Shown here: one piece after another, positions 6,787 to 12,540 of the stretch
Layout: every line of letters starts with the position of its first letter
How positions within the stretch are numbered: position 1 is the first letter of the stretch
Assembly: GCA_016839815.1 (NCBI GenBank)
Contig: JAEOTM010000059.1
Span: 1-12,540, forward strand
Reading direction: 5' to 3'
Length of the DNA stretch: 12,540 bases
DNA from: Candidatus Hodarchaeota archaeon
GTDB lineage: Archaea > Asgardarchaeota > Heimdallarchaeia > Hodarchaeales > Hodarchaeaceae
The notes under the pieces: generated by a model
What the model saw: only the letters and a program-made list of their open reading frames with translations
Told to the model about the DNA's origin: nothing
Database searches by the model: none
Program-made: the position numbers and the translations under genes

Positions 6787-7911
6787 ATGTCTTCCAGAAC
6801 GGTTCCTATTTCTAGGGGAGTTATCTTACTGTTTCTTACCTTATTATTCACCTTACCAACCTCACTATTTAGTCATGGTTATACAATTCCGAATAAACAA
6901 GAATTTCAACCCGCAGAAATAGCGCATACTGAATCAGCACCAAATTTAGTCGTTACGGAACCTGAAAACCTTTCTGTGATAAGTGGTTGGTTTTTTATTT
7001 TAGTAACTGCTACAGATGATGTTGCAGTGGACAGTGTAATCTATCGTGAGAGAGATTCTACAACTTCTATTCCTTTAGCTCAAAATAGTACAAACCCTTC
7101 TCAATTTAGAGCAATTGTTGATTCTCGTACTTTTTCCAATGGAATCAAATTTCTAGAAGTAGTCGCTTATGATACGAGTAATAATTTTACTCAAGTTCTC
7201 TTAATTCTAGCTTTTCAGAACTTGGAAGCAGAAGCAGACATATATGGATATAATGCCTCAAGATTAGCAAAAGATTGTCCTTGTTTGACTGATGATAATG
7301 TTAGTTCGTTCTGGACGTTTGTACCTGCGAAATCAATTCCCGAATTTGGAGGATATGTTAAATTTGCTCATAACTTCTCTGATATATACGGACTCTTTGT
7401 GTATGATAGCTCATTAACATGGATAAGTCTTCAGTTTGACAATGACGGTAATGGAATATGCATGGAAGATGGTGAGGATATTTGGTGGTTTCTAGAAGGA
7501 AGAACAGAAACCGATTACACAGCCAATAGCTTTAAGGTACCAGTCATAGATCTATCTCAAGATCTTGAATTTGAAAGGGGATCGATAATAGGTAATAACA
7601 CAGATTTGAAATTTATTGAAATAACCCGTCCTTTTAAAACAGATGAGGCAACAGATGTGGAATTCACATTTGGATTCCCCGTTGGAATGATCTTTGCGAG
7701 TGATGCAGTACATCAAGGAGGAATTAGAGCAAATTTTACCTTAGCTCTCAGTTCCAAAATACCAGAAAATCTAACAGAGACCGACTCAACTGAGCTCCCC
7801 GGAATTGCGAAATCAGATCGATTTGCTGAATTAATATATTTCGGTGGATTGGGATTCGGAATCAACGTTATAATCATATTAGGGTTACTTTTTTACAATA
7901 AGAGACGATAG
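6787..7911 (+). CDS. Secreted, C-terminally membrane-anchored protein with an Ig-like domain and a DOMON-like domain
   Basis: N-terminal signal-peptide-like hydrophobic stretch. Ig-like segment (PNLVVTEPENLSVISG...VTATDDVAVDSV...DSRTFSNG...LEVVAYDTSNN). DOMON-like pattern (VKFAHNFSDIY, WISLQFD, CM..G.DIW, EITRPFKT....DV.F, IFASDAVH). C-terminal TM followed by NKRR. Confidence 0.65.
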   Translation: MSSRTVPISRGVILLFLTLLFTLPTSLFSHGYTIPNKQEFQPAEIAHTESAPNLVVTEPENLSVISGWFFILVTATDDVAVDSVIYRERDSTTSIPLAQNSTNPSQFRAIVDSRTFSNGIKFLEVVAYDTSNNFTQVLLILAFQNLEAEADIYGYNASRLAKDCPCLTDDNVSSFWTFVPAKSIPEFGGYVKFAHNFSDIYGLFVYDSSLTWISLQFDNDGNGICMEDGEDIWWFLEGRTETDYTANSFKVPVIDLSQDLEFERGSIIGNNTDLKFIEITRPFKTDEATDVEFTFGFPVGMIFASDAVHQGGIRANFTLALSSKIPENLTETDSTELPGIAKSDRFAELIYFGGLGFGINVIIILGLLFYNKRR

Positions 7912-7944: not shown

Positions 7945-8649
7945 ATGGTTTTACATGCCCCTTCAATACATTTTCATATTGGTGCTTGGTTCGTAACAGC
8001 ACTTTGCACAACACTTGTATTAATCATTAATTTATTCAAACAAAAGAATTTCTTGAACTTTCAAGACAGGGTAAGTGAGGAAACCATCCAGAATCTAGAT
8101 TTTGCAGCTCATATTGGTGGTATTATTGGTCTAGGAGGAATTCTGGTGGCTGGATACCTCGGATTGATAGATGCTTCTGGAGTAGACTTTCACATAGCAG
8201 TCTCAAGTATTGAAGAAATATTTACCACAGTTCTTTTCTTTTTTGATTTTGGCGTACCCCTTCAAGGATTGGAAAAGTCAATTAATCAACCACAATTGGG
8301 ATATAAAGTCGTATGGACGGTGGTAGGGATGCAACTATATTTCATATCGGGGATTATTAGATTTTATTTTGTTACACTTAAGAAAAATAAAATATCAGAT
8401 ATTCACTTAGGTATTCAGTCGATTTATAGTGGCGCTGCCGTATTGGGGTTTATTATGATGGTCTCGATATCTGCTACCGGAGGAATCTATACCTTCAATG
8501 AATCATTTCTTACAGACTTGCCAATATTAAATAATTTGTTAGCAGGTTCGAATGTACCTCTTCTACAAATATTAACTGTTTTCTTTGGGATTTTTGTTTT
8601 AGCTATGATACTATTCGTCATTGTTTCAACAAAGAGATCAGAGAAATAA
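7945..8649 (+). CDS. Multi-pass membrane protein, DUF2231-like (His-rich N-terminus)
   Basis: N-terminal LHAPSIHFHIG resembles the LHPxxVHFPIA motif. It also has AGYLG, a late SATGGIY motif and about 5-6 hydrophobic helices. AGGA lies upstream of the ATG. Confidence 0.6.
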   Translation: MVLHAPSIHFHIGAWFVTALCTTLVLIINLFKQKNFLNFQDRVSEETIQNLDFAAHIGGIIGLGGILVAGYLGLIDASGVDFHIAVSSIEEIFTTVLFFFDFGVPLQGLEKSINQPQLGYKVVWTVVGMQLYFISGIIRFYFVTLKKNKISDIHLGIQSIYSGAAVLGFIMMVSISATGGIYTFNESFLTDLPILNNLLAGSNVPLLQILTVFFGIFVLAMILFVIVSTKRSEK

Positions 8650-8782: not shown

Positions 8783-10714
8783 ATGAAAGAAACTCTCAAA
8801 GTTTTTGATATTCTTAGTCAAGAAATTCGCTTTGAAGTTGTAAAGCAGCTTAATTTCAGTAGAAAGTCCTTTTCGGAATTATTAGCATGCTTTGAGGGTA
8901 TTAGAAGTAATAAATTTAGTTTTCATATTAAAAAACTAGTTGAATCAAACTTAATACAGAAGAAGGAATCATATTACGAACTTACTGAATTTGGAATTAC
9001 TACCCTAAAGTTCATAGAAGCCTATGAAATGGATCAAATAGATTATATTCAACTTTCTGGAGCAGGATCAGTTGTCGGTTCAGAAGTACGCATTACCAGT
9101 GGCCTATTGTCTGAACCAATTTCTCTTCCTAAAAGACCAGATGAATTACCACCTAGCATACGATCATTTAATTTTTTTGTAGGAAAAAATACACCAATGA
9201 TGGAAGAAAACATATTTCTTCCTTTACCAGAACCAATAGAACAGTCAATTTCACCTCGTGAATGGATCAAACAATTTATTAAACCATTAGATGCATTATT
9301 GGGAGAAGATTACTCTAAAAAATGGTTAGAAGATCGTCTATTAAAATTAGCATATGGAACACGGGGATTACAAGATTTTTGCTTAATGGATGCATCGTTA
9401 TCCGTACCCCCTCTCAAATCTTTGATTCAACCGATGCAAGAAGTTCTAAAGACTCGCGGAAAAGCAGGCCTATTTGCTACAACAGGGATGGGGAAGAGTC
9501 GGTTATTGTTATATATTGCGAGTTGGTGGGTGCGTTTATTCCAGACACCAGTTTTATTTATTGAGAATCCCAAAGATATGGGTGAGGTAGAGTGGGATTC
9601 CCTGTTTTCTATTTTATTAAGTAATATGTCAAAAGAGAGAGAAACTCCTAGATGGCTTGTTATAATTGAAGATGTGCACTTGGTCCCATTCGAAATTCTT
9701 GAAAAAATCCAGAAATTGGTCACTGATGCAGGGACACAATCATGGTCAGTTCTCATTGCATTCACACAGTCAGTGATACAGAGTTCCCCACAATCCGCAC
9801 CAGGAAAGCAAGAATTTCTCGCATTAGTAGAAAAATTACAACTGGAATTACAACCTCTTGAAGTTGCTCTTCAATTCGATTTAAACAGCATTTGGGATGA
9901 TTGGCGTCCATATTTTTCTGAATGGGTGAAATGGGTCGGACTCGATGTTCTTGTTACCATTATTCCATGGACTAATCGACCTTCTGAACCCTACAAAACA
10001 TTCGAGTCACCTTGGGCAATGGTTGTTTCTTTGGGTTTTTTGAAAGTCGCTTTGGCAAATTTACAAAAATCTGTCATTGATAATACATTCCCGCTTGTGC
10101 TTTATTCATTAATTTCACTATTGTATTCATTACGCGGTGAAAAAAAAATCTTGCAACTCAAACTAATCTTATTTCTTGAAAATACGTTTAAACAAGAATT
10201 AACTGAATTATATCCTGAAGGAGATTGGAAAACTAAAGTTAAATCCACAGTAGCTCATTGGACAAATCCTTTCATTAGATTATTACCCCCTATAAAGTAT
10301 GAGAGTTCATCTAGTAGCCTTAAAAAACTTGAAATTATTTCCTTTTATCACCAAGAGTGGGCTACAGAAGTATGTAAGATCATTCTTGATCCAAGATCGT
10401 CAGATATCTATTCTTTTCTCAAACGAAAATTCGAGACCCTTGTTCCATCTGTATACACGATTTGGGAATCGATAAATCAAGTAAATATTGACAAACCAAT
10501 AGATTTTTTTCATTGGCTTTGCCTTAATACACGCTTCGAATTGAATAATGAGGGTAAATTAGTATTAATACATTTAAAACTTGATCCTGACGATGTTAAG
10601 AATTTAGGGGAAAATTTAGAACTAAAAATAGGGTCAAAGAATCTAAATAATGTCCAATTGTTGAATTGGACTTTTATCAAGAATGTAGTGGCAAATTACA
10701 AGCAATATGGGTAG
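8783..10714 (+). CDS. Winged-helix (ArsR-like) + P-loop NTPase protein, STAND-like putative regulator
   Basis: N-terminal FDILSQEIRFEVVKQL...SFSELL...SNKFSFHIKKLVESNLIQK...YELTEFG (wHTH). Walker A ATTGMGKS and Walker B WLVIIEDVH. Confidence 0.7.
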   Translation: MKETLKVFDILSQEIRFEVVKQLNFSRKSFSELLACFEGIRSNKFSFHIKKLVESNLIQKKESYYELTEFGITTLKFIEAYEMDQIDYIQLSGAGSVVGSEVRITSGLLSEPISLPKRPDELPPSIRSFNFFVGKNTPMMEENIFLPLPEPIEQSISPREWIKQFIKPLDALLGEDYSKKWLEDRLLKLAYGTRGLQDFCLMDASLSVPPLKSLIQPMQEVLKTRGKAGLFATTGMGKSRLLLYIASWWVRLFQTPVLFIENPKDMGEVEWDSLFSILLSNMSKERETPRWLVIIEDVHLVPFEILEKIQKLVTDAGTQSWSVLIAFTQSVIQSSPQSAPGKQEFLALVEKLQLELQPLEVALQFDLNSIWDDWRPYFSEWVKWVGLDVLVTIIPWTNRPSEPYKTFESPWAMVVSLGFLKVALANLQKSVIDNTFPLVLYSLISLLYSLRGEKKILQLKLILFLENTFKQELTELYPEGDWKTKVKSTVAHWTNPFIRLLPPIKYESSSSSLKKLEIISFYHQEWATEVCKIILDPRSSDIYSFLKRKFETLVPSVYTIWESINQVNIDKPIDFFHWLCLNTRFELNNEGKLVLIHLKLDPDDVKNLGENLELKIGSKNLNNVQLLNWTFIKNVVANYKQYG

Positions 10715-10731: not shown

Positions 10732-11367
10732 TTAAAATGAGCAAAAATAACTCACATGATCGTTAGTGACTTTTTTACCAATTAATCCCATATCTTGAAG
10801 AGATTCTAAATTGTTAACTGTATCTTCGATGCTCTTTTCACTTTCAGAGGCGATTTCTTCGACATTCCCCTCCTTTAAAGCTATCATTGCTAGTGCAGTG
10901 GGTTGTAAGTGAGATGGTAGCTGATACAATTCGCCAGAACTAAATTTTTTTGTGGGGATTATCATCTTAGAATTATCAATAGTTAGCTCTTCTCTCACGA
11001 TTTCGTTAATTGTATCACTAAATGGTTGGAAAGTGTTAAGATCGAGTGAATCTTTGATCAGCTGTTCTCCAAAATCTTTCATGAATTGTATACCCAATCG
11101 GTGGAGCACATTTTCTGGAGTCTCAGGTAAATCTGTTACTAAAACAATTTGGTATTGGCCAAATGATTTGAAGTGATAGGATAAATTATCAATTTTAATA
11201 CTTTTTAAACCAGATTTACCTTGGCTTAATTCAGTAGCGACCCCTTGAAGAGCAGTCATTAATCCTGCTAACAACATTTCATTGGGAATAGTCTCAGCGG
11301 ACTGAAAAGTTTCCGAAACAAGTGGTCTTCCATCCATTGAAATGACATAAACTGCATAAGCAATCAT
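10732..11367 (-). CDS. Longin-like domain fused to a C-terminal winged helix-turn-helix
   Basis: N-terminal beta-beta-alpha-beta-beta-beta-alpha-alpha pattern: YAVYVISMDGRPLVS / LLAGLMTALQGVATEL / LKSIKIDNLSYHF / IVLVTD / LHRLGIQFMKDF / FQPFSDTINEIV. C-terminal LPSHLQPTALAM...NVEEIASES...TVNNLESLQDMGLIGKK...VSYF (wHTH). Confidence 0.65.
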   Translation of the reverse strand: MIAYAVYVISMDGRPLVSETFQSAETIPNEMLLAGLMTALQGVATELSQGKSGLKSIKIDNLSYHFKSFGQYQIVLVTDLPETPENVLHRLGIQFMKDFGEQLIKDSLDLNTFQPFSDTINEIVREELTIDNSKMIIPTKKFSSGELYQLPSHLQPTALAMIALKEGNVEEIASESEKSIEDTVNNLESLQDMGLIGKKVTNDHVSYFCSF

Positions 11368-12210
11368 TCAGTTGTTGTCTCCGAATAGGTTATTAGCTAA
11401 TTCTTTGATAATCTTAGAAATGATATGGTCTGGTTTGTCTAGTGTGTGAATCATTCTTCTTGTAGGGTTTCCTTCTAGAGTTTTTATTGCTGTTTCGAAT
11501 TCAGTTTTGTATAAGTCCAGATCATTCGGTATCCATCCCATGAAATCTACAGTTTTATCACCAAGATCTTTTTTAAGCAGATTCTCAATCAATTTTTGAA
11601 AATGTTCTTTTCTAATTTGGTCATTTAAAAAGTCTGAGGGAATTTGATTAGCAATAATTTTTGTTCTACTTTTAAGTTGTTTATGTAATCCTTCAATCAT
11701 GTGTGAGGTTCCAATAATATCAGCATTTGTTACTTTAACCATAAAGAGTATAATTTCTGTAATGACCATTACATTGATGGTTGAAAACCCTGTCCCAGGT
11801 GAACAATCAAGAATTAGGTAATCGATGGAATATGGCTCCTCTCGTAACATACTCTTCATTTTCATGAGATAATGGAGCATTTTCATTGAAGTGTTTTGAT
11901 CAAGACGGATTACATTCTGGATTGATTCTGGTGTGGGATCAGCAAATGCAACTAGCAATTTTCCTGATAAGGCTAAATCGTTACTTAAATCCTGTAAACA
12001 TTCCTCGAGAGAAGAATCACCTGTTAGAAAACTGTTAATCCAATGGATCTCCGATTTGGGAGTAAAGAAAGTTAAGATTGAAGGTCCATGAAAATCACTA
12101 TCGATTAGGCAAATATTTTTACCCTCTGCTGCTAAATGAATGGCTAAATTTACCGCTAAACTTGTTTTACCAACTCCACCTTTGTGTGATAATATTGCCA
12201 ATGATTTCAA
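11368..12210 (-). CDS. MinD/ParA-family (SIMIBI) ATPase
   Basis: Deviant Walker A SHKGGVGKTS, LIDSDF, Walker B YLILDCSPG and IIANQI. TTG start with a GGAGGA SD upstream. Confidence 0.9.
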   Translation of the reverse strand: MKSLAILSHKGGVGKTSLAVNLAIHLAAEGKNICLIDSDFHGPSILTFFTPKSEIHWINSFLTGDSSLEECLQDLSNDLALSGKLLVAFADPTPESIQNVIRLDQNTSMKMLHYLMKMKSMLREEPYSIDYLILDCSPGTGFSTINVMVITEIILFMVKVTNADIIGTSHMIEGLHKQLKSRTKIIANQIPSDFLNDQIRKEHFQKLIENLLKKDLGDKTVDFMGWIPNDLDLYKTEFETAIKTLEGNPTRRMIHTLDKPDHIISKIIKELANNLFGDNN

Positions 12211-12216
12211 TCTAAA

Positions 12217-12222
12217 TCCTCC
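12217..12222 (-). promoter_or_regulatory. Shine-Dalgarno GGAGGA for the MinD/ParA gene
   Basis: The minus strand reads TTTGGAGGATTTAGA-TTG(12210), which supports the TTG start. Confidence 0.6.
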
Positions 12223-12540
12223 AAATATTCATAATAAATTTGAATTCATGAATTGTAACTAAAAAATCTTTGTCCTGAATTTCGATCTATTTTGGATAAA
12301 CCAACTATCTTGATAGAAAAACGTTAATTATTAATTAGTACACAATTGATCTTTCTTGAAAAATTGAAAGTTAATATGAATTTAATGTTTTACTCAATAA
12401 AAATTGACCAGCTGGATACTTCTCTATAGAATGAGAGTAACTAGAGGTTAATATCAATGAATTAGACGAATTATTCATTGTTCTAAAGGATCAATACCAG
12501 ATATTACTATAGAAATTGGTAATTTACGAAATAGAAGTGA

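Follow-up and report, generated by a model that had tools for sequence, protein, structure and literature searches.

Computational work has recently predicted archaeal 'ParA-wHTH systems' (Li, Burroughs and Aravind, bioRxiv 10.64898/2026.10.19.760177, October 2026), wHTH standing for winged helix-turn-helix. These systems are mainly archaeal, their core consists of a ParA-type NTPase and at least one wHTH protein with no obligatory effector, and they are predicted to intercept invader DNA (bioRxiv 10.64898/2026.10.19.760177). The wHTH evolves rapidly and follows an elongated helix, and in some of the systems the same protein also carries a profilin-longin-like domain (10.64898/2026.10.19.760177). 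For the ConB2 assemblage of ParA proteins, in which it places these systems, the same preprint gives two signatures, an Arg where Walker A usually has its Lys and a PG motif that follows sensor-1; the preprint also reports ParA replacing MglA beside MglB-like proteins, and its main text names no Asgard lineage (bioRxiv 10.64898/2026.10.19.760177). Here we analyze a gene pair that belongs to, or is a sister of, these predicted modules. The pair lies in a 12,540-nucleotide stretch of DNA from a Candidatus Hodarchaeota archaeon (contig JAEOTM010000059.1 of assembly GCA_016839815.1), which is one contig of a 4.24-Mb genome in 206 contigs and is referred to below, at its full length, as the window. 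The first gene encodes a ParA/MinD-type ATPase and the second a partner protein predicted to consist of a longin domain, a linker and a wHTH.

In eukaryotes, longin domains are typical regulators of small GTPases, and in Asgard archaea they are counted among the eukaryotic signature proteins. Of the Asgard archaea, the Hodarchaeales are at present considered to be the closest to eukaryotes. In the pair described here the association of a longin with a winged helix and a ParA/MinD-type ATPase has been stable over a long evolutionary time. We propose, with a confidence slightly above even, that the two proteins are a cognate ATP switch and its adaptor, in which the linker and wHTH of the partner are the output coupled to the ATPase and the longin is an exchangeable platform. 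The proposal builds on the anatomy of the locus, the folds of the two proteins, their linkage and co-divergence, and the swapping of domains in the partner.

Results

A gene pair inherited as a unit

The ATPase gene comes first and the partner gene follows it directly.

11368-12210, minus strand: ATPase gene, 280 aa, TTG start, GGAGG 7 nt upstream
10732-11367, minus strand: partner gene, 211 aa, ATG start
11365-11370, minus strand: gene junction TGA-ATG with a 0-nt gap, reading catTCA on the plus strand

A first-pass annotation of the window had described a tight two-gene unit with a 0-nt TGA-ATG gap, and both the gap and the coordinates are correct in the sequence; such a junction suggests translational coupling of the ATPase and the partner. 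The same annotation saw no adjacent MinC, MinE or ParB, in agreement with a family scan that found none of these families among the open reading frames (ORFs) of the window. A 99%-identical locus is present in Candidatus Heimdallarchaeota archaeon B3_Heim (NJBF01000012.1).

The pair recurs far beyond chance and is inherited as a unit across Asgard archaea. An ATPase of the same clade lies directly upstream, on the same strand, at 24 of the 29 partner loci examined in different Asgard genomes, which reach down to 22% partner identity, and some ATPase genes are followed by two tandem partners. The other five partner loci comprise two solo genes, one contig end, one weak ParA-like match on the far side and one variant. 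Viewed from the other gene, a full-length partner is found directly downstream at 18 of 24 Asgard ATPase loci, the remaining six being three Roc fusions, two loci with a wHTH protein upstream and one contig end. In 29 unique pairs the profile matches are mostly 3-10 nt apart, with spacings of up to ~43 nt in distant pairs, and mean identity is 0.47 and 0.40 for the two proteins. The ATPase and partner identity matrices of these pairs, among which are paralogous ones, correlate closely (r 0.955, Mantel 0/2000), and the nearest neighbor of the ATPase is also that of the partner in 22 of the 29. The survey of gene neighborhoods that the first-pass annotation had proposed as a check thus finds the pairing conserved and co-evolving across Asgard genomes.

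A second pair is located on contig C21 of the same genome (L012:854-2337, minus strand); its ATPase is 49% and its partner 46% identical to those in the window. Each of the two C21 proteins groups with its own orthologues, and therefore the pair has duplicated and diverged as a unit. The C21 genes overlap by 4 nt. The C21 ATPase has ACG where its orthologues have ATG, with no canonical in-frame start before the P-loop, and the same ACG is present in another genome (L029); the C21 triplet may be a non-canonical start codon or may mark a decaying gene.

The module is accessory rather than core. Approximately 13 of the 21 genomes of the genus contain a strong match, with 1-4 copies each and occasional tandem duplicates of the partner, and the module was not found in two genomes of the genus that are each 91-94% complete. 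The flanking genes vary between lineages. No relative was found in the viral contigs scanned with the partner alignment.

The ATPase

The ATPase scores above the Pfam thresholds for ParA/NUBPL (PF10609, 2e-18), AAA_31 and CbiA. Its motifs are a deviant Walker A, SHKGGVGKT, with signature Lys10, a DSDFHGPS segment and a Walker B, LILDCSPGTG. Residues K10, K15 (Walker A), D39 and D135 (Walker B) are invariant in 37 ATPase homologues, and therefore the protein should be a catalytically intact, active and dimerizing enzyme. The AlphaFold model has a predicted local distance difference test score (pLDDT) of 89 and a predicted template modeling score (pTM) of 0.90. The solved folds closest to it are FleN (5j1j), FlhG (4rz3) and MinD (1hyq, 4v02), with template modeling (TM) scores of 0.73-0.83; the structural matches include FleN-FleQ complexes, and Soj/ParA ranks below FleN, FlhG and MinD.

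All relatives with more than 42% identity are Asgard records, and the next ones, from Atribacterota and others, are at ~35% partial identity. By these identities the ATPase belongs to an Asgard-specific clade. It remains under every curated NCBIfam cut-off tested for MinD, ParA, Mrp and KGGVGR: minD_arch, 38.3 versus 201.75; minD_bact, 39.3 versus 212.9; ParA_partition, 49.6 versus 180; the KGGVGR model, 52.6 versus 90; MrpORP, 65.8 versus 450; and ApbC, 49.8 versus 348. The ATPase resembles the Mrp/NBP35/ApbC proteins in its GPS motif and in an SPGTG where they have PPGTG, but it lacks their C-terminal CxxC cluster ligands, having no Cys beyond C136. For want of this CxxC motif we rejected an identity as an Mrp/NBP35 Fe-S carrier, and the scores are below the cut-offs.

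The C-terminal helix of this copy is amphipathic, with a hydrophobic moment of 0.57; in the family the mean is 0.37, with less than one basic residue on average, and the amphipathic character is weak and not convincing. A membrane anchor at this position is therefore no more than a possibility.

The partner protein

The partner can be divided into three parts.

10978-11367, minus strand: longin domain, aa 1-130, order beta-beta-alpha-beta-beta-beta-alpha-alpha, assigned by fold search and hhalign
10912-10977, minus strand: linker, aa 131-152, motif I-x-P-[TS]-K-x-[LF], here IIPTKKF
10735-10911, minus strand: winged helix-turn-helix, aa 153-211, recognition helix at about 180-192, wing 193-211

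Sequence models alone give faint matches to both domains. No Pfam longin model exceeds its cut-off for the partner; Fuz_longin_1 gives E 0.0055 and 17.3 bits, below the gathering cut-off of 26.1. The wHTH finds TrmB (E 0.07) and ArsR/CzrA, all sub-threshold. We also searched with an AlphaFold model built from a 22-sequence alignment (overall pLDDT 71.6; N-domain 43-78, C-domain 82-95). In a structural search of the entire PDB, independent of Foldseek, the top 30 rows for the partner are all longin domains. The best match is Sec22b (Z 13.8, root-mean-square deviation (rmsd) 3.0, 123 residues aligned), and others include synbindin (Z 13.4), sedlin (Z 13.2), VAMP7 (Z 12.7) and SRX (Z 11.9); the Lokiarchaeal longin 8yqg scores Z 10.6. 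The roadblock protein MglB lies below the longins, at Z 9.6 over 101 residues. Foldseek returned Fuzzy, MON1, AP sigma and mu, TRAPP, Sec22b and zeta-COP, and CodY, which has a GAF domain plus a wHTH, is among the whole-chain structural matches. Residues 143-211 match TFE-alpha (Z 9.9, rmsd 1.7, 69 residues), MarR (Z 9.5), RPC62 and Fur. The first-pass reading of the partner as a longin plus a wHTH is therefore borne out at the level of the predicted fold, by Foldseek and by the all-PDB search.

The 26 close homologues of the partner come, where a source name is given, from Hodarchaeales or Hodarchaeota, and the wider family has 185 cluster representatives at E <= 0.001. Three short representatives consist of the wHTH only. 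The first is a fragment at a contig end with a ParA gene after it, the second neighbors an NAPRTase gene and the third comes from a contig of 838 nt; none of them bears on a minimal system made of the wHTH alone. In an alignment of 61 diverse members of the family, no part of the C-terminal half is better conserved than the linker motif, with P138 in 52, a basic residue at 140 in 43 and L/F142 in 57. We consider it a candidate contact or activation site for the ATPase.

Taken over its full length, the wHTH shows roughly the same degree of conservation as the linker, and the wing ends in a conserved YFCSF. The recognition helix is the most variable segment of the partner, with a mean identity of 39% compared with 53-63% elsewhere. 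The net charge of the wHTH averages -1.5 in the family and is -6 in this copy, and the wing is mildly basic. Given these charges and a variable recognition helix, DNA binding by the wHTH family is therefore plausible, not assured.

Exchange of the N-terminal domain

Two of the ATPase loci have no longin protein; upstream of the ATPase they carry instead a gene for a 397-aa LRR protein (L062) or for a 235-aa protein (L066).

L062:1191-3958: LRR-wHTH variant module
L066:1661-3927: 235-aa wHTH variant module

The C-termini of both proteins align to the linker and wHTH of the partner (hhalign 98.6-98.8%, 31-39% identity), and the alignment covers the P-x-K/R-x-L/F motif and the C-terminal YF(C/R)S; that of the 235-aa protein begins at the helix before the linker. 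The linker and wHTH are thus kept while the N-domain is swapped, and therefore they constitute the module linked to the ATPase and the N-domain is exchangeable. At the level of these alignments it is a new finding of this work that the linker plus wHTH stays constant beside the ATPase and is joined to a longin, an LRR or another domain. The first-pass annotation had suggested that the longin may be the activator of the ATPase; since the longin is replaceable in the variants, it appears to be an exchangeable input or dimerization domain and not an obligate activator.

A gene for a small Ras/Roc- or Arf-like GTPase is convergent just downstream at both of the longin-less loci, against a background of ~57 Ras-family genes in 4.2 Mb. 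Over all loci small GTPases account for 3 of 80 flanking proteins, which is not clearly above background. LRR, Roc and winged helix domains are building blocks of ROCO proteins.

The longin of the partner can also be related to longins found with other NTPases. It aligns with the N-terminal longin of a longin-Roc/Arf fusion protein over 122 columns (hhalign 97%, E 1e-10, 30% identity), and this alignment makes it a homologue of the longins that other Asgard archaea have in fusions with Roc/Arf GTPases, a relationship newly recognized here and one that places it, in line with the first-pass annotation, among the longins that accompany NTPases. The fusions are ~300 aa long and common in another Asgard family (for example L129:4761-5648, plus strand, with similar ORFs in L130-L132). 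In that family 80 of 135 genomes match the partner profile, and most of the listed matches are longin-GTPase fusions. No ParA-type gene was found within 4-5 kb of the longin-GTPase fusion loci. Asgard longin-GTPase fusions as such were described earlier (PMC10933270).

A third ATPase paralogue is encoded on contig C162 of the genome (L011:2-1738, minus strand, running off the contig). It is 54-55% identical to the ATPase of the window and is fused to a Roc GTPase domain. Its full-length ParA-Roc relatives (P0296-P0299) are ~900 aa long and have DUF4145, one of the HEPN families (PMC3710099), as their C-terminal domain; no Pfam family was matched by the ~360 residues that separate Roc from DUF4145. 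By these domain assignments the fusion of an ATPase paralogue to Roc and a HEPN domain is a further new observation.

Predicted complex

We modeled two ATPase copies with ATP and the partner. The interface score ipSAE was 0.37, with 0.37, 0.10 and 0.40 in the individual runs and 0.00 for the best control. Of 80 solved complexes 58 reach this mark, as do 2 of 110 mismatched pairs, but only 7 of those 80 have scores of <=0.60. The runs agree in at least 87% of contacts, and the pLDDT of the partner is at least 72. Complex modeling had been proposed in the first-pass annotation as a check on the pairing; the score of 0.37 against 0.00 for the control speaks for it, and the weak grade and the missing interface do not. 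The prediction thus weakly suggests that the ATPase and the partner bind each other. No interface was returned, and therefore the prediction is silent on the domain that binds.

Upstream region and neighboring genes

The region preceding the ATPase gene extends to the end of the contig.

12211-12540: upstream intergenic region, reaching the contig end, with GGAGG at 12218-12222
12243-12254: perfect 12-bp palindrome AATTCATGAATT, ~35 nt upstream of the ATPase start

ATGAATT occurs in these 330 nt four times, out of 11 matches in the window. The region may hold a promoter and an operator, which we suggest with low confidence. The palindrome AATTCATGAATT is kept in the 98-99% relative only and not in more distant orthologues. 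No iterated centromere-like repeats are present in the region.

The remaining scanned ORFs of the window are metabolic genes, two ORFs without a Pfam family and one gene for a 643-aa DUF7347/HTH_20 protein. The last (8783-10714, plus strand) is convergent with the partner gene, their stop codons being 17 nt apart. It is a single-copy gene in the genome, and its position is kept in all orthologous loci down to ~60% ATPase identity (L004, L005, L018, L019, L049 and L050); the paralogous pairs do not have it alongside. The two ORFs at 6787-7911 (plus strand, 374 aa) and 7945-8649 (plus strand, 234 aa) are adjacent to each other. Neither is assigned to a Pfam or PADLOC family, a faint Big_7 match being the sole hint.

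Discussion

The results presented here allow us to propose how the two proteins might work together. The MinD/FlhG/FleN-like ATPase would form ATP-sandwich dimers, and the ATP-bound dimer would engage a dimeric partner, so that the nucleotide state gates the cargo of the winged helix, most likely DNA. The conserved basic residue of the linker could stimulate hydrolysis and so reset the switch. The longin would serve as the dimerization or input platform and would be of the same lineage as the longins fused to Rag/Arf-like GTPases in other Asgard archaea. We infer binding, gating by ATP and DNA binding in this scheme, and an ATP-gated DNA-binding switch is the role that we judge most likely. 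Candidate functions for such a switch are action against invaders, a switch resembling FleN-FleQ and DNA positioning, the last being the least likely; we favor DNA surveillance or regulation over chromosome partition or Min-type division control. If the pair is a switch of this kind, the range of NTPases served by longin platforms would be wider, and the pair would offer a tractable two-protein system for the role of Asgard longin domains.

Several observations weigh against this proposal. The score of the predicted complex is weak and came with no interface. Shared ancestry confounds the co-divergence and inflates the correlations, and therefore co-divergence demonstrates co-inheritance, not contact. 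When the domains are analyzed one by one, the partial correlation with the ATPase is 0.65 for the longin, and the linker plus wHTH has 0.37; these values do not single out the contacting domain. The N-domain is modeled with moderate confidence (pLDDT 43-78). The wHTH of this copy is acidic, with a net charge of -6 and -4 in the recognition helix, which is unusual for a DNA binder, and in the upstream regions of 24 loci, inspected by eye, no motif is common to the orthologues. Finally, there are solo copies of the partner with no adjacent ATPase (L003, 5001-5639; L020; and L024, which is L047:16942-17574), and these may act in trans with an ATPase encoded elsewhere. One of the solo genes lies beside NUDIX and NAPRTase genes and one follows a gene for a TPR protein.

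It is possible, if doubtful, that the pair is an anti-invader system in which the wHTH recognizes foreign DNA, the ATPase multimerizes on the DNA or sequesters it, and the longin aids multimerization. An archaeal two-gene unit whose wHTH protein carries a longin fits the description of the ParA-wHTH systems, in which the wHTH sometimes comes with a profilin-longin-like domain (bioRxiv 10.64898/2026.10.19.760177). The 54%-identical ATPase paralogue fused to Roc and DUF4145, the 1-4 copies per genome with tandem partner duplicates and patchy spread in the genus, and a recognition helix that is the fastest-evolving part of the partner would all be in keeping with defense. What is more, in one paralogous lineage (L047:125-7079, L051-L055 and L071) the gene before the module encodes a DEAD/WHD_HRQ1/MZB (DUF1998) helicase, for which PADLOC gives matches to DruE/DrmA-type models. 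On the other hand, no effector gene is linked to the pair, and among the 80 flanking proteins there is no recurrent nuclease or toxin and no defense family other than this helicase. The PADLOC matches of the pair itself are marginal, the neighbors in the window are metabolic, the ConB2 signatures are absent (K15 is invariant, and the motif is GPS, not PG), and evolution is slow for immune genes, with mean identities of 0.47 and 0.40. Should the pair nevertheless act in immunity, it would rank with the first defense systems specific to Asgard archaea. In L047, a complete Asgard chromosome, an SMC-like ATPase precedes the helicase and three partner copies lie within 12 kb; L047 also encodes a 2438-aa NosD/beta-helix protein.

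A transcription switch of the FleN-FleQ type, in which ATP-dependent binding of the ATPase tunes the wHTH factor while the longin dimerizes or senses, possibly with autoregulation, appears rather unlikely. The closest folds of the ATPase, FleN (including its complexes with FleQ) and FlhG, point in this direction, as do the resemblance of the wHTH to MarR, Fur and TFE-alpha, the sub-threshold sequence matches to ArsR/TrmB and the presence of CodY among the whole-chain matches. The 12-bp palindrome ~35 nt upstream of the ATPase start and the enrichment of ATGAATT in the upstream region could be sites of autoregulation, but the conservation of the palindrome stops at the 98-99% relative and the recognition helix is acidic. 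Nor is a regulon evident, because the neighbors differ between genomes.

We consider it unlikely that, in the sense of the first-pass annotation, the longin is itself the GAP-, GEF- or activator-like regulator (GAP, GTPase-activating protein; GEF, guanine nucleotide exchange factor) of the SIMIBI ATPase, with the ATPase in the place usual for a small GTPase, and that the wHTH only tethers the complex to DNA. The homology of the longin to that of the Roc/Arf-like GTPase fusions speaks for this reading, as does the preprint's ParA in place of MglA beside MglB-like proteins. The longin matrix does follow that of the ATPase slightly better than the wHTH matrix does, and both longin-less loci have a small GTPase gene next to them, on the above background of ~57 in 4.2 Mb. 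Yet an LRR or another domain replaces the longin in the variants while the linker and wHTH stay, the loci of the longin-GTPase fusions have no ParA nearby, no interface was returned for the predicted complex, and small GTPases are just 3 of the 80 flanking proteins. A further idea, to which we also give a low probability, is that in Hodarchaeales the longin is the regulatory platform of a SIMIBI ATPase instead of a Ras-like GTPase, and that the pair has a winged-helix output and is wired into a Roc/Arf network; the fusions of ParA to Roc and HEPN, the variants with LRR-wHTH proteins and their small-GTPase neighbors hint at such wiring. Were this so, the pair would be a prokaryotic, nucleotide-gated longin switch that bridges two great GTPase classes.

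A partition or positioning cassette of a small ParA and a wHTH centromere-binding adaptor, akin to the type Ib par loci and raised in the first-pass annotation, is very unlikely: the gene order (ATPase first, small DNA-binding adaptor second), the translational coupling and the Walker-type ATPase with its signature lysine would suit it, but upstream of the genes neither iterated centromere-like repeats nor a motif conserved among orthologues is seen, the 2-4 copies per genome are chromosomal, the spread is patchy with several near-complete genomes of the genus lacking the module, no viral contig has a relative of the partner, the ParA_partition score is 49.6 versus 180 with no ParB family in the window, and the FleN, FlhG and MinD folds rank above Soj/ParA.

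Comparison with known systems

The cognate switch and adaptor that we prefer shares single features with several described groups. To the longins of eukaryotes and Asgard archaea (Sec22b, sedlin/TRAPPC2, AP sigma, SRX and Mon1-Ccz1) the partner longin is alike in fold and in the order of secondary structure elements, with Z values of 10-14. It differs from them in being fused to a wHTH and in standing beside a SIMIBI ATPase rather than a Ras-like GTPase, and no GEF or GAP residue can be assigned in it. SRX had been cited in the first-pass annotation as a precedent for a longin acting with a SIMIBI NTPase. The precedent is weaker than stated, as in the solved matches (5ck3 and 1nrj) the molecule to which SRX binds is the small GTPase SR-beta. 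With the SIMIBI NG domain of SR-alpha SRX merely shares a polypeptide chain.

Asgard proteins resembling NPRL2/NPRL3 likewise combine an N-terminal longin with a small C-terminal domain (Liu et al., bioRxiv 10.1101/2020.10.19.343400), whereas the partner has just one wHTH and, at 211 aa, a far smaller size. It gives no match to the NPR2/NPR3 Pfam family at E up to 1, and GATOR1 chains are absent among its 50 best structural rows. The pair is not mentioned in the 2021 Asgard comparative paper, the Arf preprint or the roadblock/longin structure paper.

On the ATPase side, FleN, FlhG and MinD provide the best structural matches and also have the deviant Walker A with a signature lysine, but neither MinC, MinE or FlhF nor a flagellar context is present in the window. 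FleN acts on a DNA-binding regulator, FleQ, and this offers a functional analogy.

The ParA-wHTH systems are the closest in organization. They and the Asgard loci have in common a conserved neighborhood of an ATPase and a wHTH protein, with one or two partners in the present case and all loci in Asgard archaea, and the model of the partner has both a helix before the linker and wHTH (residues 110-127) and a longin as its N-domain. From ConB2 the ATPase differs in having an invariant K15 (KGGVGKT) and GPS after DxD, and the wHTH here is only moderately variable. A Ser at the start of Walker A is a likeness to the PriB2 clade (10.64898/2026.10.19.760177). The first-pass annotation had taken the pair for an undescribed module, a claim that no longer holds for the general type, which is outlined in bioRxiv 10.64898/2026.10.19.760177; that the ParA-wHTH module was already predicted in 2026 tempers the value of the finding. 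The family is probably already inside the set of that preprint, and in either case the pair belongs to the predicted archaeal ParA-wHTH modules or is their sister, with a longin that is exchangeable and a linker and wHTH that stay with the ATPase.

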